From a virus, in UHGV virus genome UHGV-1960391: a stretch of DNA of 9,574 bases. One strand, given 5' to 3'. Shown piece after piece: positions 1 through 9,430 of this stretch. Each line of letters opens with the position of its first letter. The first letter of the stretch is position 1. The position numbers and the translations under genes are program-made. Below the pieces are notes generated by a model. That model was not told the DNA's origin. It was given only the letters and a program-made list of their open reading frames with translations, and searched no databases.

Positions 1-786
1 GGAGTTCAGGGAGGAACCGCCGGAAGTGCTGCCACCGGAGGAACCGCCGGAAGTGCTGCCACCGGATGAACCGCCGGAAGTGCTGCCACCGGATGAACCG
101 CCAGAAGTGCTACCACCGGATGAACCGCCAGAAGTGCTGCCACCGGACGAACCGCCGGAATTATCACCACCGTCAGTATTACCGTTATTCCCTTTATCAT
201 CAGTATCTCCGCTATCACCTTTATCTTCTGTATCTTCTTTATCAGAATAAGCCGGATCAACAGTTACAGGTTTCCAGGTAGCGGTACAAGAATCTGTACC
301 ATCGGGACAAATAATAGCAACACCCGTTGCCTCATAAATGCATCCATGAATGGTGACATATTTATTCCCTTTATCATCCTTATAAACACCTGACAAAGAA
401 ACATTACTAAGCTCAGGACGGGATAAACAAACCTCTTCCGTGGGTTTAGCTGAATACGAAGCACCAAAATATTGACCGTAAAAGCTATCCTTACACTGAG
501 AATAAACCTTAACACCATCCTCAAAATGGTAAGACTTATAAGAGATCCAGTTACCTGTAACCAGTAAAAATGGCATACCCAAAAGATGATTAGTATCGCT
601 GTAAGACGTAGTACAATAAAACGTATCACCTGAGCAGGATGCATATCCAGTAGTACAGGGTGGAGCTACACCGGCCCTTGCAACACGGGTACCGGAACCT
701 GCATCACCAAGAAATTCTGTCGTTGAAGCTGCATATGCAGAATTAAATGAAAAAACAGCAACAAGGAAAATAAATATATATGCCAA
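1..786 (-). CDS. Minor coat/adsorption protein g3p (pIII)-like, N-terminal 262 codons only; C-terminal part lies beyond the window start
   Basis: Hand translation of the minus strand from TTG at 786..784 (preceded by GGGGGTGAG, in-frame TGA just upstream) is open to position 1. It gives a signal-peptide-like N-terminus (LAYIFIFLVAVFSFNSAYA), a Cys-rich domain, a segment VYKDDKGNKYVTIHGCIYEATGVAIICPDGTDSCTATWKP resembling the Ff g3p N1 domain as I recall it (VWKDDKTLDRYANYEGCLWNATGVVVCTGDETQCYGTWVP), then an acidic stretch and (GGSSGGSTS)n linker. Not in the ORF track because there is no in-window stop. The TTG start is unverified. Confidence 0.7.
   Translation of the reverse strand, partial: MAYIFIFLVAVFSFNSAYAASTTEFLGDAGSGTRVARAGVAPPCTTGYASCSGDTFYCTTSYSDTNHLLGMPFLLVTGNWISYKSYHFEDGVKVYSQCKDSFYGQYFGASYSAKPTEEVCLSRPELSNVSLSGVYKDDKGNKYVTIHGCIYEATGVAIICPDGTDSCTATWKPVTVDPAYSDKEDTEDKGDSGDTDDKGNNGNTDGGDNSGGSSGGSTSGGSSGGSTSGGSSGGSTSGGSSGGSTSGGSSGGSTSGGSSLNS
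14..170. repeat. About 5.5 copies of a 27-bp tandem repeat (GAACCGCCGGAAGTGCTGCCACCGGAT) encoding the Gly/Ser linker of the left g3p
   Basis: Directly visible near-identical 27-bp units at 14-40, 41-67, 68-94, 95-121, 122-148, with a partial sixth unit; the repeat likely continues beyond the window start. Confidence 0.85.
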
Positions 787-802
787 GACTCACCCCCTGA
801 AT

Positions 803-833
803 AAGCAAAAAAAGCGCCCCGCAGGGCGCTGTT
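803..833 (-). terminator. Rho-independent terminator downstream of the pVIII-like gene (minus strand)
   Basis: Inverted repeat AGCGCCC-cgca-GGGCGCT (813-830); on the minus strand the stem-loop is followed by a run of about 8 T (complement of the A-run at 804-812). Position matches the strong terminator after gene VIII in Ff phages. Confidence 0.6.
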
Positions 834-845
834 GTTAAATAACTA

Positions 846-1106
<261 letters not shown>

Positions 1107-1113
1107 TTAAAAA

Positions 1114-1284
1114 TTAATTAACAACATCGCTGAACATCCGGCAGACCAGAGTGAAAATAACACCAAGGCCAAAACCAAGAAGCCAGCAGACAATCCAGAC
1201 ATACAGAACGGCCCAGTAAAGCTCCCCGTCCTGTACACCAGAATTTATTGCGGATAAAACACCGCTGAAATCGAATTCAGTCAT
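1114..1284 (-). CDS. Small hydrophobic protein, candidate minor virion protein (pVII/pIX position)
   Basis: Track ORF 1114..1317; I favour the internal ATG at 1284 (MTEFDFSG...WAVLYVWIVCWLLGFGLGVIFTLVCRMF), which overlaps the upstream stop as ATGACTGA. One predicted TM helix; function assigned by position only. Confidence 0.4.
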   Translation of the reverse strand: MTEFDFSGVLSAINSGVQDGELYWAVLYVWIVCWLLGFGLGVIFTLVCRMFSDVVN

Positions 1285-1417
1285 AATAACGCTGAACAGT
1301 AATGATTTGTGAGTCACAGGCGCGAATCAGTTTTATTCCGATGCCAAAACCTGAAGAGAATAAAATCATTGCAGGCGCAGCGAATAAAACAAAGTTAAGA
1401 AAATCAGCGTCAGACAT
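1277..1417 (-). CDS. Small hydrophobic protein, candidate minor virion protein (pVII/pIX position)
   Basis: Track ORF 1277..1471; I favour the internal ATG at 1417 immediately after the upstream stop (MSDADFLNFVLFAAPAMILFSSGFGIGIKLIR...). Hydrophobic core with GIGIK motif; function by position only. Confidence 0.35.
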   Translation of the reverse strand: MSDADFLNFVLFAAPAMILFSSGFGIGIKLIRACDSQIITVQRYYD

Positions 1418-1421
1418 ATCA

Positions 1422-1847
1422 TCAGCCTTTTTCTTTACCTGCGGGCAGTGCACCCAGTGGCTGACCGTCAAAACGTTTCATGGAGCCGGAAATAAAACGA
1501 TACCAGACGCCATGACGTTCAGAGCCTGTTGCCCATGAATTCACATCCACCGTGAGATAAACAGGTTTACCCTTCAGGTCAGGACATGAATTAAAAAATT
1601 TAAAATCCTCCTCAGTACAGGAAAAGCGCTCATGCTCCTCACGACGGACTTTTAATTTTTTGTCCTCATACGGATAGGCAATAACAATGGCATATTTGGG
1701 TTTAGCCTCAGGGTTATAATGAGTACCACCGGGCTTTAACTCCTCATCATTTATAACAGTGGCGTGAATAAAATATCCCGCCATTGTCATACCTGCGGTA
1801 AAACCATCAGGGGAAGGAAACGGAAAGCTGTCGTAAATTTGATTCAT
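1422..1847 (-). CDS. Hypothetical 141-aa protein in the gene V position (possible ssDNA-binding protein; unproven)
   Basis: Complete ORF with good RBS (GAGGAG about 8 nt upstream of ATG at 1847), directly downstream of Rep. No motif I can recognise; larger than Ff gV (87 aa). Confidence 0.6.
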   Translation of the reverse strand: MNQIYDSFPFPSPDGFTAGMTMAGYFIHATVINDEELKPGGTHYNPEAKPKYAIVIAYPYEDKKLKVRREEHERFSCTEEDFKFFNSCPDLKGKPVYLTVDVNSWATGSERHGVWYRFISGSMKRFDGQPLGALPAGKEKG

Positions 1848-1877
1848 AAATCAGACTCCTCAATGTTAAAAATTCAG

Positions 1878-3970
<2,093 letters not shown>

Positions 3971-3983
3971 TGGAGATGGGCGA

Positions 3984-4166
3984 ATGAAAAGAAAGGCAAT
4001 AGCAATTACAGAATCAACATATCTGGATATTACTAGAATAGCCCTTGAGATAAGCCAAAAAACAGGGCAAATAGTTACATGGTCGGAAGTTGTACACTTT
4101 ATGATAAAAAACTACTTAAACGACGCAAAACAAGACATGATCCACCAAAGAAACCAAAAAAAATAA
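3984..4166 (+). CDS. Ribbon-helix-helix (CopG/Arc/MetJ-like) DNA-binding protein, candidate phage repressor/regulator
   Basis: 60-aa ORF with SD GGAG about 8 nt upstream. Sequence MKRKAIAITESTYLDITRIALEISQKTGQIVTWSEVVHFMIKNYL fits the RHH pattern (basic N-term, alternating beta-strand AIAIT, helix A, G-x turn, helix B). Divergent from Rep, the arrangement of rstR/rstA-like control modules. Confidence 0.55.
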   Translation: MKRKAIAITESTYLDITRIALEISQKTGQIVTWSEVVHFMIKNYLNDAKQDMIHQRNQKK

Positions 4167-4208
4167 CATCGTAGTTACCTATAGATACGAAGATTGCTAA
4201 GAAGCAAT

Positions 4209-4364
4209 ATGCAGACAACCAGTGACTTAATTCTTGACCTGCTGATAAAGCATTTTGTTGTGGATAGCATTACAGGCATGACGATGTTCGGCCTGATAAC
4301 GCTTGTTCTTCCGTTGGTGATGACCATACACGACAAAATGAACAGGCGCACAGACTCCTTTTAA
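4209..4364 (+). CDS. Possible small membrane protein (51 aa), below the ORF-track threshold
   Basis: Hand-translated: MQTTSDLILDLLIKHFVVDSITGMTMFGLITLVLPLVMTIHDKMNRRTDSF*; weak RBS (AAGAAG); hydrophobic C-terminal half; ends 5 bp before hairpin A. Confidence 0.25.
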   Translation: MQTTSDLILDLLIKHFVVDSITGMTMFGLITLVLPLVMTIHDKMNRRTDSF

Positions 4365-4369
4365 GATTC

Positions 4370-4463
4370 AGTGCGCACAATGACGTTATGTGTAAAAAGG
4401 CCGCTGCGGTGGAAAGTATCGCAGCGGCCTTTTCAACATAACGCGTGTCACATTATGCGCACT
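4370..4463. other. 94-bp imperfect palindrome A with dif-like XerC/XerD-arm motifs at both ends (candidate folded attP / origin hairpin)
   Basis: AGTGCGCACAA-TGACG-TTATGTGTAAA ... GGCCGCTGCG-loop-CGCAGCGGCC ... TTTCAACATAA-CGCGTGTCACA-TTATGCGCACT. Outer arms resemble E. coli dif (GGTGCGCATAA-TGTATA-TTATGTTAAAT, recalled), with asymmetric central regions (5 nt vs 11 nt). Confidence 0.5.
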
Positions 4464-4554
4464 GTTATAGCAGTTATCGATAAGACAAAAAGATACCCCA
4501 TCACCATAAGAAAAATACATGAGAAAAAAACAAATAAATCATCACGTTAAAAGC

Positions 4555-4648
4555 AGTGCGTACAAGAGCGTTATGTGTAAATCGGGCGCGGCGATCGCCA
4601 TTTTCGCCGCACCCGATTCAACATAACGGCATATACCTTATACGCACT
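4555..4648. other. 94-bp imperfect palindrome B, paralogue of A with compensatory substitutions (candidate folded attP / origin hairpin)
   Basis: AGTGCGTACAA-GAGCG-TTATGTGTAAA ... ATCGGGCGCGGCGA-loop-TCGCCGCACCCGAT ... TTCAACATAA-CGGCATATACC-TTATACGCACT. Same length and same end motifs as A; central stem sequence differs entirely but remains self-complementary. Confidence 0.5.
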
Positions 4649-4918
4649 GCAATGAGATGCGGTAAAAACAGACTGAAAGCCACATCGAATCCTCACCAGA
4701 ACGCTGTAAATCATCAATTCCATCAACATGCCACATCAATGCATGGACGACTCACGCCTTGCGTCGTTCGTCTCGCTGACTGCCCGTTTAAAGGCGGTCT
4801 GGCAGGCGGCGCGTTGCGCTGTCTCCTGCTGCTCTGTCATCTCTCACTGGCTTCGGCGGGCTGACAGCTGCGTCACATGAAACATCATCATGCCGCCTTC
4901 CATGCCGCTGGCGCGGCA

Positions 4919-7236
<2,318 letters not shown>

Positions 7237-7244
7237 TCACCCGT

Positions 7245-7535
<291 letters not shown>

Positions 7536-7548
7536 TCACCACCTGATA

Positions 7549-9238
<1,690 letters not shown>

Positions 9239-9252
<14 letters not shown>

Positions 9253-9430
9253 GACCACCCCCAAAATCAAAAGAGAAAGGCTTAACAATGTTGCGAAAAT
9301 CACGGTCAGAAACTTCTGAAACAGATGAAACAATATAATCATCAACAGTTATATTCTGTCGTTCGATAATTTTTTCTATCTTCTTTATTACATCAACGGG
9401 TATTTGTAGCCGGATTTCTGTCTTTTGCAT
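9239..9430 (-). CDS. Hypothetical small protein, possibly ribbon-helix-helix-like, between terminator and g3p
   Basis: 63-aa ORF; MQKTEIRLQIPVDVIKKIEKIIERQNITVDDYIVSSVSE fits a beta-strand/helix/helix pattern; weak RBS; 3' end overlaps the preferred g3p start by 14 nt. Confidence 0.3.

Follow-up and report, generated by a model that had tools for sequence, protein, structure and literature searches.

Two dif-like forked hairpins at a junction of filamentous prophages: one behaves as a CTX-type attachment site, the other seems to have rewritten the dif core in related genomes

Gene content and hairpin anatomy of the window

The window is a stretch of 9,574 nucleotides of viral DNA (UHGV virus genome UHGV-1960391). 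Inside it, two different filamentous (inovirus) prophages of an array, X and then Z, meet at an internal junction. Positions 10-4464 are 99.4% identical to one phage type (the region of Z; reference locus L001), and positions 4369-8487 match a second, different phage type at about 90%. Virion genes are present separately on each side of the junction. Both prophages are incomplete within the window, which contains no host DNA and in which no recombinase gene was found; the arrays of close relatives sit at dif. The genes and the non-coding end of X are as follows.

6-1847, minus strand: other genes of Z (141-aa protein, 80-aa major coat protein, pIII-like fragments)
1878-3890, minus strand: replication endonuclease of Z, P2 GPA-like, origin-nicking (Pfam Phage_GPA 2.9e-48; phrog_91 1.6e-128)
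4649-4918, minus strand: non-coding right end of X, from the secretin stop to unit B (from alignments to relatives)
4919-6178, minus strand: secretin (gene IV-like) of X (Pfam Secretin 1.8e-25)
6175-7233, minus strand: Zot/pI-like morphogenesis gene of X
7245-7532, minus strand: DUF2523/pVI-like morphogenesis gene of X
7549-9345, minus strand: pIII-like 598-aa protein, morphogenesis gene of X

Z has virion genes of its own, as the coat protein and pIII-like fragments indicate. The secretin protein of X occurs in identical copy on 24 contigs among those read. Every phage gene of the window is read from the minus strand. Ff and CTX phages package a (+) strand of mRNA sense, and by this analogy we take the minus strand of the window as the phage (+) strand, which would put the 11-nt centre described below in the 5' arm of the hairpin, as in CTX attP1.

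Neither megablast of the whole window nor blastn of 4340-4700 against 50,697 phage records gave a match, so that collection lacks these prophages; an exact-protein look-up of the 598-aa protein found none, and an Rfam search of the window returned nothing relevant. A scan of the window called no terminator, and promoters were at chance level.

A direct-repeat search found one family, with two 96-nt copies at 4369-4464 (unit A) and 4554-4649 (unit B) that are 72% identical and start 185 nt apart. The initial annotation had described them as 94-base palindromes (4370-4463 and 4555-4648); both are confirmed, and each extends one base pair further (C...G). Its placement of dif-like forked inovirus hairpins between gene IV (4919-6178) and the replication gene (1878-3890) also stands. 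The parts of the two units are as follows.

4369-4464, minus strand: unit A, forked hairpin, here the composite X/Z junction (fold z -10.1; identical hairpins at prophage-prophage junctions of relatives)
4453-4463, minus strand: XerC-like arm, 5' arm of A, AGTGCGCATAA
4442-4452, minus strand: 11-nt bulged centre, 5' arm of A, TGTGACACGCG
4431-4441, minus strand: XerD-like arm, 5' arm of A, TTATGTTGAAA
4395-4433, no strand assigned: inner stem-loop of A, AAAAGGCCGCTGCG / CGCAGCGGCCTTTT, perfect 14-bp stem (4395-4408 / 4420-4433) and 11-nt loop
4370-4396, plus strand: 3' arm of A, AGTGCGCACAA TGACG TTATGTGTAAA, with a 5-nt centre; counterpart of CTX attP2
4465-4553, minus strand: spacer between B and A, about 90 nt, T-rich on the phage strand, unstructured (from the fold of the region)
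4554-4649, minus strand: unit B, second paralogous forked hairpin, at the right end of X (fold z -7.2)
4638-4648, minus strand: XerC-like arm, 5' arm of B, AGTGCGTATAA
4627-4637, minus strand: 11-nt centre, 5' arm of B, GGTATATGCCG, starting with G, not T
4616-4626, minus strand: XerD-like arm, 5' arm of B, TTATGTTGAAT
4555-4581, plus strand: 3' arm of B, AGTGCGTACAA GAGCG TTATGTGTAAA

Each unit is a pair of inverted dif-like sites that pair within one strand, giving a forked hairpin with duplex XerC and XerD arms. XerC- and XerD-like arms had been proposed at all four ends, and the composite motif AGTGCGYAYAA-N5-11-TTATGTKKAA occurs four times in the window, exactly there, and in 0 of 200 shuffles. 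The centres are asymmetric in both units, as first described: 5 nt on the plus-strand arms (TGACG in A, GAGCG in B) and 11 nt on the minus-strand arms (TGTGACACGCG in A, GGTATATGCCG in B). A chromosomal dif has an 11-bp XerC arm, a 6-bp centre and an 11-bp XerD arm. With one centre extended and the other short, none of the four half-sites has this layout and neither half-site of A or B is a usable duplex dif. Searching with E. coli dif at up to 3 mismatches found no true dif in the window.

Both units fold strongly on both strands, as the initial annotation anticipated (z from -7 to -10). As single-stranded DNA, unit A reaches -33.7 kcal/mol on the plus strand (z -7.8) and -36.9 kcal/mol on the minus strand (z -10.1), and unit B reaches -28.7 (z -7.0) and -33.4 kcal/mol (z -7.2). 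No shuffle equalled any of these values. Folding the whole region (301 nt) gives two independent hairpins and an open spacer (-78 kcal/mol, z -13.1). The inner stems are self-complementary as claimed, over 14 bp at 100% in A and 15 bp at 93% in B, where the loop is 9 nt (4580-4594 / 4604-4618). The reported covariation in the XerC arm (C:G in A vs T:A in B) is real. Over nine hairpin variants from different loci, compensatory double changes affect 9 of 37 pairs, including the two centre pairs beside the XerC arm (T:A and G:C in A vs G:C and A:T in B). The inner stem of A is flanked by A/T runs and may thus have a second role as a bidirectional terminator; the terminator scan did not flag it because the loop is longer than 8 nt.

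Unit A and the junctions of relatives at dif

Related prophages sit at E. coli dif, between hipA and the ydeQ fimbrial cluster, which agrees with the expected location at dif. Their annotation lists no integrase. Relatives away from dif carry an IS110-family transposase.

An insertion through unit A can be read from its two ends. On one side, the host XerC arm is joined to the remainder of A, giving a junction of host arm and TGTGACACGCG that is present in relatives; on the other, the phage XerC arm is joined to TGTATA TTATGTTAAAT. CTX-type junctions of this kind were seen at dif in L001, EC12, cM8a, 16F5M1D1 and L095, and in the CUS-1 prophage of UTI89, which has a homologous single hairpin; the wider set of loci with A junctions is L001, L003, L007 and L008 (left ends), L010, L094-L100 and L179. 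Identical A hairpins lie at the prophage-prophage junctions of L001, L003, L007, L008 and L095, with the host-arm versions at the ends facing hipA; in every array whose start is visible, the host arm joined to the A remainder comes first. At the opposite end, terminal copies have A's XerC arm joined directly to TGTATA TTATGTTAAAT and host flank.

Single X prophages show which parts belong to which phage. Loci L094-L100, which share an identical secretin, terminate in unit B, the spacer and AGTGCGCATAA joined to TGTATA TTATGTTAAAT. The one left end visible among them, beside hipA in L095, is the host arm joined to the A remainder. L010 has the same right end, and in EC12 both tandem copies have it, with B and A standing between the identical copies. 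From the ends of the single X prophages, we assign B and the spacer to the upstream phage, together with the 11-nt XerC arm of A. By sequence comparison, unit A is then a composite junction hairpin, and B is not the neighbour's own attP. In the window, which holds no host junction, 4453-4463 is assigned to X and 4370-4452 to Z from the loci of relatives; on the CTX model, 4453-4463 would be the 11 nt that close X, and XerC would be expected to cleave at the 3' end of this arm.

Two apparent variants were set aside. An A-spacer-arm mini-element in L095 proved to be a scaffold gap of Ns. Entry through B was considered for the Y element, a replication protein, an SSB and two small genes with no morphogenesis genes, and was rejected since arrays start with the host arm joined to the A remainder and the first Y copy of L004, which comes after a phage with another type of right end, lacks B. 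To the left of L102 is an insertion sequence found in 76 contigs.

The A family is present in 250 of 5426 E. coli genomes, at a median of 2 places per genome, and in all 12 chromosomal loci inspected every copy lies in a prophage array at dif. With B and the spacer confined to 3 of the 5426 genomes, the objection that the units might be a dispersed REP/ERIC-type repeat finds no support. An episomal 9.6-kb circle carries one intact A hairpin.

CTX-type elements have an inverted XerC/XerD site pair, form tandem arrays and regenerate dif at the 3' end, and CUS-1 and Ypf are listed among the CTX-type IMEXs (PMC4266046; PMC4246890). In CTX, the centre is 12 bp in attP1 and 5-7 bp in attP2, and the bases beside the XerC site determine specificity (PMC4246890). 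In unit A, the 11-nt centre opens with TGT, the same three bases as on the XerC side of the dif centre TGTATA. TGT is invariant in the A family (TGTGAC, TGTGAT, TGTGTT and TGTACG, against TGTATA in dif), the XerD side has no homology, and only the first two centre bases beside the XerC arm are paired in the fold. CTX phi of Vibrio cholerae likewise has dif homology only beside the XerC arm, and its attP(+) likewise combines a long and a short centre (12 and 5-7, against 11 and 5 here). The XerC-side crossover, the regenerated dif and the irreversible tandem arrays are also as in CTX phi, although here they are read from junction sequences. The two differ in the interval between half-sites (about 35-40 nt here vs 90 bp in CTX) and in hairpin number, CTX having one, and outside the arms their sequences are not homologous.

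The most similar attP sites described are those of CUS-1 phi (E. coli O18:K1:H7) and Ypf phi (Yersinia pestis), from the same host group and at the same site, dif beside hipA. In UTI89, CUS-1 has the host arm joined to TGTACGACTCG TTATGTTGAAAAGGCCGCTGCG...CGTCATTGTGCGAACC at one end; the opposite end carries a regenerated dif. Comparing the arms with known inovirus attP sites, as the initial annotation had suggested, shows unit A to be 83% identical to the CUS-1 hairpin, with the same inner stem and the same 11- and 5-nt centres. CUS-1 has one hairpin whereas the upstream phage of the window has two in series, and it uses a II/X-type replication protein whereas Z uses a P2 GPA-like nickase. 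Because the CUS-1 prophage of UTI89 bears a hairpin of the same family, unit A can be placed in a known family: judged by its sequence, it behaves as a CUS-1/CTX-type folded attachment site.

Unit B, its spacer and the altered terminal sites

Unit B differs from A in the centre bases beside its XerC arm. Its centre opens with GGT, GAT or GAC, and the first base never matches the TGT of dif, so B should not undergo XerC exchange with dif. Its homology to dif is instead on the XerD side (..ATA). Positions 4-11 of the centre, ATATGCCG, are invariant across all B variants seen. In the duplex 5' arm of B, the pseudo XerD arm, TGCCGTTATGT, matches only about 6 of 11 consensus positions.

B keeps the same neighbours in single X prophages, EC12, Y satellites and L021/L060. 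At least 7 assemblies with identical secretin have a single prophage X with B, the spacer and the A arm at the right end. The last ~24-45 nt of the non-coding end of X (4649-4918), or a close variant, precede every B found, and this end is shared with the Y satellites at 88%. Downstream, no more than 100 nt separate B from an A or, where an array ends, from the fusion of A's XerC arm with dif; at least 4 spacer versions occur (46, 52, 87 and ~98 nt in relatives). The only exceptions are a degenerate copy in L008/L060, after which ~370 nt follow, and the deleted terminal sites described below; the L008/L060 copy has a degenerate 3' XerC arm, as expected of a decaying passenger.

The B-proximal part of the spacer is homologous to the sequence after the attP hairpin of another lineage, L006 (18.5 vs 5.5 +/- 2.1 in 2000 shuffles). 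The 3' half was considered as a remnant of a phage right end, and its homology was insignificant (p = 0.12). The 185-bp segment from the B remainder through the spacer to the A arm is not an independent junction mini-element, as it is part of single X prophages and of both EC12 copies. A metagenome scan with a 17-mer gave mostly chance hits, of which only L021, L048 and L060 were relevant. A literature search found no published description of the double hairpin.

The proposal that both hairpins are CTX-type folded attP sites thus stands for A, from the junctions of relatives, and finds no such support for B, whose centre mismatches dif. A junction of the host XerC arm with the B remainder was found in none of the 5426 E. 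coli genomes or the fetched loci. The attL expected of TLC-like entry via B (pattern GCGCATAATGTATATGCCGTTATGTTGAAT) was absent from the viral contigs and all fetched loci. Since neither was found, B may be inert as an attP.

In four related loci the terminal site is a hybrid: the XerC arm comes from B, the next 6 nt are those that open the local B centre, and the XerD arm is the host's. They show three centre variants (GGTATA, GATATA and GACATA). The fusion in L004, L007 and L102 joins B's XerC arm to GATATA or GGTATA and then to the host's XerD arm. At the ends of L004, L007 and L008, the centre of the dif-like site starts with precisely the bases that open the centre of the local B. In native sites that share this flank the centre is TGTATA (2807 genomes), so B does not appear adapted to an enterobacterial dif with a G-type centre, an option we rejected. 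In a published table of dif sites, GATATA centres belong to distant taxa only (PMC2731167). The crossover fell in the last shared block in 4 of 4 cases, in register 6 nt from the XerC arm. We roughly estimate the chance of this at ~0.01-0.03, a figure to be read with the caution that L004 and L007 are possibly one event and not independent. At least 8 B-bearing prophages keep an unconverted TGTATA terminal site. The altered sites suggest an XerD-side exchange that rewrites the dif core, although they could also come from microhomology-mediated deletion.

Proposed explanation, alternatives and significance

We propose that A is a working attP of the CUS-1/Ypf/CTX type and that B is a second hairpin carried by X, with XerD-side change of dif. 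We give this account as a whole a probability of about 0.7; its enzymology and the origin it assigns to B are inferred from the observed anatomy, folds, junctions of relatives and co-occurrence of B and A. On the circular (+) ssDNA, the two inverted half-sites would pair into duplex XerC and XerD arms with 11 nt opposite 5 nt. Host XerC would cut after AGTGCGCATAA and swap that single strand with the top strand of dif, and replication would then fix the insertion. The expected product has the host arm joined to the A remainder on the hipA side and, opposite, a new dif made of the phage arm, TGTATA and the host XerD arm. The next phage would enter at this regenerated dif, which is how the A of the window would come to consist of the 11-nt XerC arm of X and the hairpin remainder of Z.

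In this account, X runs from the secretin through 270 nt to B, the spacer and the A arm. The most likely origin of B is a neighbouring prophage of the past, whose left end was taken up into the phage genome. Judging by its arms, it keeps everything needed to bind XerCD, yet with a centre that starts with G it should exchange via XerC neither with TGTATA nor with A; this incompatibility would explain its persistence beside A. In the duplex prophage, the 5' arm of B (XerC arm plus 6 bp ending in ATA) apparently recombines on the XerD side with the adjacent regenerated dif. Such an exchange would delete the B remainder, the spacer and the A arm and leave a dif with B's centre.

TLC phi, whose XerD-first integration has been described (PMC9226527), is an analogy for B only. 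The duplex 5' arm of B similarly has a good XerC arm, a 6-bp centre whose ATA matches dif on the XerD side and a poor XerD arm, and the terminal sites keep the centre of the element and the host XerD arm, as XerD-side exchange would give. In contrast to TLC phi, no XafT-like gene was found in the window, the predicted attL was not found and the event looks like a local deletion beside dif, not an integration. For the capture of B, the closer likeness is to the RS1 satellite and CTX hybrids, which also form heterologous arrays at dif; the Y element resembles a satellite. New genomes that span a junction, as in CTX-type hybrids, would account for the presence of B and the spacer in X. In the literature searched, we found no comparable CTX/RS1 case of a retained second complete hairpin.

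The alternative that survives best, though we consider it doubtful, treats B as a neutral fossil. A downstream prophage, since lost, would have passed its left end to the phage genome when rolling-circle replication crossed an array junction, and the copy would persist for no other reason than a centre compatible with neither A nor dif. Ordinary slippage, or deletion over short homology, between two imperfect direct repeats of 18 bp would then have given the altered terminal sites. The homology of the spacer to a phage left end and the decaying B copy of L008 fit this, as do the close relatives L005, L001 and CUS-1, which lack B with no visible defect. Hybrid genomes from tandem elements are established for CTX (Davis and Waldor 2000, cited in PMC4246890). 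A fossil would not be expected to yield crossovers in the last shared block, in register, in 4 of 4 cases. Nor does it account for the invariant bulge, for arms that are intact in most lineages, or for the spread of B to unrelated backbones with as little as 40 nt of upstream sequence.

Conservation could instead mean that B is a fully functional second attP, with A directed at canonical dif and B at dif variants that start with G, including the converted sites, and with arrays such as Y-Y-Y-Y built through B. We think this unlikely, and somewhat more so than the fossil. Across four phage backbones with varying loops and spacers, the hairpin of B stays conserved, as do its two arms and the bulge ATATGCCG, and the two centre pairs beside the XerC arm covary. 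B would be compatible with the terminal sites of L004, L007 and L008, which match the local B centre, and all internal junctions of Y arrays are compatible with entry through B. A dif-like site with a GACATA centre also exists in another organism (L103). Against these stand the absence of host arm joined to B remainder in the 5426 E. coli genomes and the fetched loci, the A remainder at the start of every visible array, and the unconverted TGTATA ends of at least 8 B-bearing prophages. The first G-type site would, in addition, still need another reaction.

A bolder version, which we hold to be improbable, makes B a working second Xer site with which the phage privatises dif, a two-key attachment system. 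Entry would occur through A first, followed by XerD-side loss of the 185-bp B remainder, spacer and A arm, replacing TGTATA with B's GGTATA, GATATA or GACATA. The rewritten site would no longer pair with TGT-type competitors (A-type, CUS-1-like) but would pair with the B hairpin of incoming kin, which would build arrays through B.

The initial annotation had suggested a junction of two tandem prophages, each contributing its own attP. The junction is confirmed, since the window does join two different prophages, but it is very improbable that each brings a complete attP, the upstream phage B and the downstream phage A. A CTX-type junction holds one composite hairpin only, and single X prophages carry both parts, with the host arm joined to the A remainder on the left and B, spacer and A arm joined to dif on the right. 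EC12 has B and A between identical copies and again B, spacer and A arm at the terminal dif.

Ff phages keep intergenic signals between gene IV and the replication gene, where these hairpins also lie, and the inner stem of A is flanked by A/T runs; even so, ordinary inovirus signals (packaging, minus-strand origin, terminators) or a host REP/ERIC-type repeat are hardly tenable and are refuted as the sole explanation by the arm motif (4 vs 0 expected), the host-phage crossovers exactly at the arms, the restriction of the A family to 250 of 5426 genomes and, at the 12 inspected loci, to arrays at dif, the lack of an Rfam match or terminator call in the window, and a better priming-signal candidate at 4849-4919. 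A secondary terminator or packaging role is possible.

Returning to our preferred account, unit A is ordinary and extends the CUS-1/Ypf/CTX class, which integrates folded ssDNA at dif with host XerCD, to a mosaic set of E. coli inoviruses in ~5% of complete genomes. Less ordinary are the conserved hairpin pair with different core specificity and the dif sites that bear the 6-bp centre of the second hairpin: a second hairpin with a different core rides beside A and seems to have rewritten the host dif core in related genomes. The arrays document E. coli satellites and hybrid phages that parallel the interplay of CTX, RS1 and TLC in Vibrio cholerae. If the replacement is truly Xer-mediated, an IMEX can edit the target used by all other IMEXs and by chromosome dimer resolution, and a simple sequence rule would predict which phages stack at a given dif.

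Junction of two prophages

Every credible gene of the window lies on the minus strand, and no recombinase gene was found there. The virion strand of Ff and CTX phages has the sense of the mRNAs; by analogy, the window's minus strand would be the phage (+) strand. In the phage sense, the gene calls and hairpins run as follows:

9345-7549, minus strand, pIII-like protein
7532-7245, minus strand, DUF2523/pVI-like protein
7233-6175, minus strand, Zot/pI-like protein
6178-4919, minus strand, secretin/pIV-like protein, followed by 270 nt
4649-4554, unit B, followed by a spacer of about 90 nt
4464-4369, unit A, followed by about 480 nt
3890-1878, minus strand, P2 GPA-like origin-nicking protein
beyond the nickase gene, minus strand, a 141-aa protein, an 80-aa major coat protein and pIII-like fragments

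The sequence is a mosaic: a prophage of E. coli 377323_2f (L001) shares 99.4% identity with positions 10-4464, and another phage type matches 4369-8487 at about 90%. Its breakpoints fall on both edges of unit A, and each side has virion genes of its own. The window is thus the junction of two different prophages, X (upstream, secretin side) and Z (downstream, nickase side), which bears out the tandem setting proposed in the initial annotation.

Two small ORFs on the opposite strand, 3984-4166 (+) and 4194-4364 (+), end just short of unit A and may be a regulatory or immunity region of phage Z. The first belongs to phrog_2503 (5.6e-27), a conserved phage family of unassigned function, annotated in relatives as WP_021559714.1. 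A stretch of 71 nt on the minus strand directly after the secretin stop (4849-4919; also 2501-2571 of locus L180) has matches of about 80–83% in at least 5000 conjugative plasmids of IncF type from Escherichia, Klebsiella, Shigella and Salmonella. In one such plasmid the match lies about 700 bp downstream of the IncFII repA, a region that carries a primase G-site in R1/R100. The stretch may therefore be a complementary-strand priming signal of the phage.

Unit A as a folded attP at dif

Units A and B are the two copies of one 96-nt direct-repeat family (4369-4464 and 4554-4649; 72% identity, starts 185 nt apart), each an imperfect palindrome. The composite motif AGTGCGYAYAA-N(5-11)-TTATGTKKAA has four matches in the window, exactly the four arms, against 0 of 200 shuffles. 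The plus-strand arms have 5-nt centres, TGACG (A) and GAGCG (B), and the minus-strand arms 11-nt centres, TGTGACACGCG (A) and GGTATATGCCG (B). If the minus strand is indeed the phage (+) strand, each hairpin has its long centre in the 5' arm. As single-stranded DNA, both strands of both units give folds far more stable than those of shuffles (-28.7 to -36.9 kcal/mol, z -7.0 to -10.1), and a 301-nt fold of the region gives two hairpins side by side with the spacer open (z -13.1). The inner stems differ altogether in sequence, yet each is self-complementary: that of A over 14 bp without mismatch, that of B over 15 bp at 93%. Covariation is seen in the two centre pairs beside the XerC arm, T:A and G:C in A versus G:C and A:T in B. 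The dif-like palindromes and the stems that differ yet remain self-complementary, both noticed initially from the sequence alone, therefore hold.

Junctions in relatives point to the function of unit A. Strain 377323_2f has two Z-type prophages between hipA and the ydeQ fimbrial cluster, the dif locus. With a slash for the crossover point, the hipA-side end reads ...GATGCGCATAA/TGTGACACGCG TTATGTTGAAAAGG..., in which a host XerC arm directly precedes the hairpin minus its own XerC arm (the A remainder). The internal prophage–prophage junction is an intact unit A, and the far end, AGTGCGCATAA/TGTATA TTATGTTAAAT plus host flank, is a regenerated dif. The pattern recurs in EC12 (L003), cM8a (L007), O8:H8 16F5M1D1 (L008), the CUS-1 prophage of UTI89 and L095, an assembly with the window's exact secretin in which GGTGCGCATAA/TGTGACACGCG adjoins hipA. 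One intact A hairpin is found on a 9.6-kb circular episome of JNE25-005. The centre opens with TGT in every A variant, like the TGTATA of dif; the remaining bulge varies. A dispersed host repeat can be rejected for the A family, which occurs in 250 of 5426 complete E. coli genomes at a median of two places per genome, within a prophage array at dif in all 12 chromosomal loci inspected.

In CTX phi, the folded attP(+) combines attP1 (12-bp centre) and attP2 (5–7 bp), XerC cleaves at the arm/centre border, replication resolves the product, and the bases adjacent to the XerC arm set specificity; Ypf phi and CUS-1 phi are classed as CTX-type (PMC4246890). A review of Ypf describes XerC/XerD sites in inverted orientation, with dif restored at the 3' end (PMC4266046). 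The CTX phi signature is the one found here at unit A junctions. The UTI89 hairpin is 83% identical to unit A, shares its inner stem GGCCGCTGCG, and has the long centre TGTACGACTCG and short centre CGTCA. Unit A, initially put forward as a CTX-type attP, is thus a new member of the already known CUS-1/Ypf/CTX kind of attP. We infer from sequence that it would depend on XerCD.

Unit B and the altered terminal sites

A CTX-type junction should hold one composite hairpin only, so unit B needs a separate explanation. We traced relatives of phage X through the window's exact secretin and found it in at least seven assemblies (L094-L100) and three IMG/VR contigs (L009, L010, L048). The right end always reads secretin, 270 nt, B, a spacer of 46 or about 96 nt, AGTGCGCATAA/TGTATA TTATGTTAAAT and host flank; the left end, where visible (L095), is a host arm joined to the A remainder. 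EC12 has B, 90 nt and A between two identical copies, B, 90 nt and the A arm joined to dif at the far end, and A alone at the hipA end. Phage X thus has the two hairpins one after the other and uses A to integrate, and the earlier suggestion that each tandem prophage contributed its own attP fails. Window positions 4463-4453 (the XerC arm of A), the spacer and B therefore belong to X, and 4452-4370 to Z.

Spacers between units B and A:
90 nt: window, EC12
46 nt: L009, L010, L048, L094
about 96–98 nt: L097, L100, 700481 (L004)
87 nt, divergent sequence: cM8a
52 nt, unrelated sequence: L021, L060

The pairing of B with a nearby A spans four backbones: X, one GPA-type and one L006-type phage, and Y, a 3.66-kb satellite-like element. 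Exceptions are a degenerate copy in L008/L060, followed by ~370 nt, and deleted terminal sites. B goes with the upstream element: in 700481 the first Y copy stands after a phage with another right end, without B. The B-proximal spacer is homologous to the sequence after the hairpin in L006-type phages (score 18.5 versus 5.5 ± 2.1 in shuffles), so B and its spacer look as if they had once formed the left end of a neighbouring phage. Hybrid phage genomes are known to arise by replication across junctions. Rolling-circle replication across an array junction could have copied B and the spacer into the phage genome, and from the homology we infer such an origin for B.

Several observations speak against B serving at dif as an attP of the CTX type. 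All B centres open with G (GGT, GAT or GAC), and the first base to be exchanged would therefore be unable to pair with dif; no host arm joined to a B remainder was found in 5426 E. coli genomes or in the loci compared; and the 3' arm of one copy (16F5M1D1) has decayed. Constraint on B is favoured by both arms and the bulge ATATGCCG, invariant across lineages with differing loops and spacers, and by the covariation of two centre pairs between A and B. Heterology between A and B would also keep XerC from removing either hairpin of an adjacent pair, and could alone explain why only a G-type copy survives.

In place of phage arm/TGTATA, the terminal dif-like site of four loci opens with a B-type XerC arm and the six leading bases of the local B centre, then continues into the host XerD arm and E. 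coli flank:

GATATA: 700481 and cM8a, local B centre GATATATGCCG
GACATA: 16F5M1D1, local B centre GACATATGCCG
GGTATA: IMG/VR contig L102

The native site with the same flank is TGTATA in 2807 genomes, and centre variants occur only alongside these elements. The opposite array end, where visible (cM8a, 16F5M1D1), is a host arm joined to the A remainder. XerC chemistry always joins the phage arm to the host centre and so cannot make these sites; the crossover lies in register at centre positions 4–7, on the XerD side. In duplex form, the 5' arm of B consists of an XerC arm, a poor XerD arm and, between them, a 6-bp centre whose last bases are ATA. Most simply, the altered sites would result from a deletion between this arm and the regenerated dif 140–190 bp away. 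XerD exchange would begin the deletion, and replication would fix it, given the heterology on the XerC side; the altered sites would then be a trace of B activity. By our rough estimate, random short-homology deletion would place all events in the last shared block with a probability of about 0.01–0.03; 700481 and cM8a may share ancestry. TLC-like entry through B predicts an attL of host arm TGTATA/TGCCG, which was not found among viral contigs or in the loci compared. At least eight B-bearing prophages retain a TGTATA terminal site, so replacement of the dif centre is only occasional.

IMG/VR contig L103 (3300026097_000008, 200-400) has a dif-like site GGTGCGCATAA GACATA TTATGTTAAAT beside repeated TGTGGATAA motifs, with a second about 90 nt downstream, which shows that a GACATA centre is possible with a host-type XerC arm. 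At 8780-8857 of L102, the prophage runs into a sequence that 76 further IMG/VR contigs share and that is presumably an insertion sequence breaking up the phage.

Related elements and novelty

Y (L004 5700-12650, L007 8600-23100) has genes for a II/X-type replication protein, an SSB and two small proteins but none for morphogenesis. At dif it stands in arrays of 2 to 4 copies, each ending in B, spacer and A, and it resembles RS1 or TLC in lifestyle. Away from dif lie two close relatives that combine a GPA-like replication gene with structural genes of the X type (L002 17755-18720, between ybiB and hcxB; L093 2792-3769, at a different chromosomal site). Immediately upstream of the replication gene, both carry a gene for an IS110-family (DEDD) transposase. 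L002 lacks a dif-like hairpin, L093 showed no XerC-arm/centre/XerD-arm site, and the transposase appears to be an alternative integration module in place of the Xer hairpin.

The IncF plasmid NZ_CP078136.1 (L101, 11600-13010) carries a decayed filamentous prophage whose A remainder is fused to an XerC-like arm, ...GAGTACACATAA/TGTGTTACAC, 4 kb from a dif-like site TGTGCGCATAA TCTATC TTATGTTAAAT. These sequences suggest integration at a plasmid Xer site. A prophage of Xenorhabdus griffiniae VH1 (L011, 1560-1650) has the left junction GGTTCGCATAA/TGTGATATGCCG TTATGTTGAAT..., whose bulge combines the TGT of A with ATATGCCG of B, so the hairpin family reaches beyond Enterobacteriaceae.

Neither a second hairpin in series nor dif centres replaced by the element's centre turned up for CUS-1/Ypf/CTX-type phages in the literature searched, and the UP-phi survey of dif-integrated inoviruses in Enterobacterales mentions neither hairpins nor attP. 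The A-type attP is already known; the double hairpin and the apparently element-derived dif centres are the less ordinary part.
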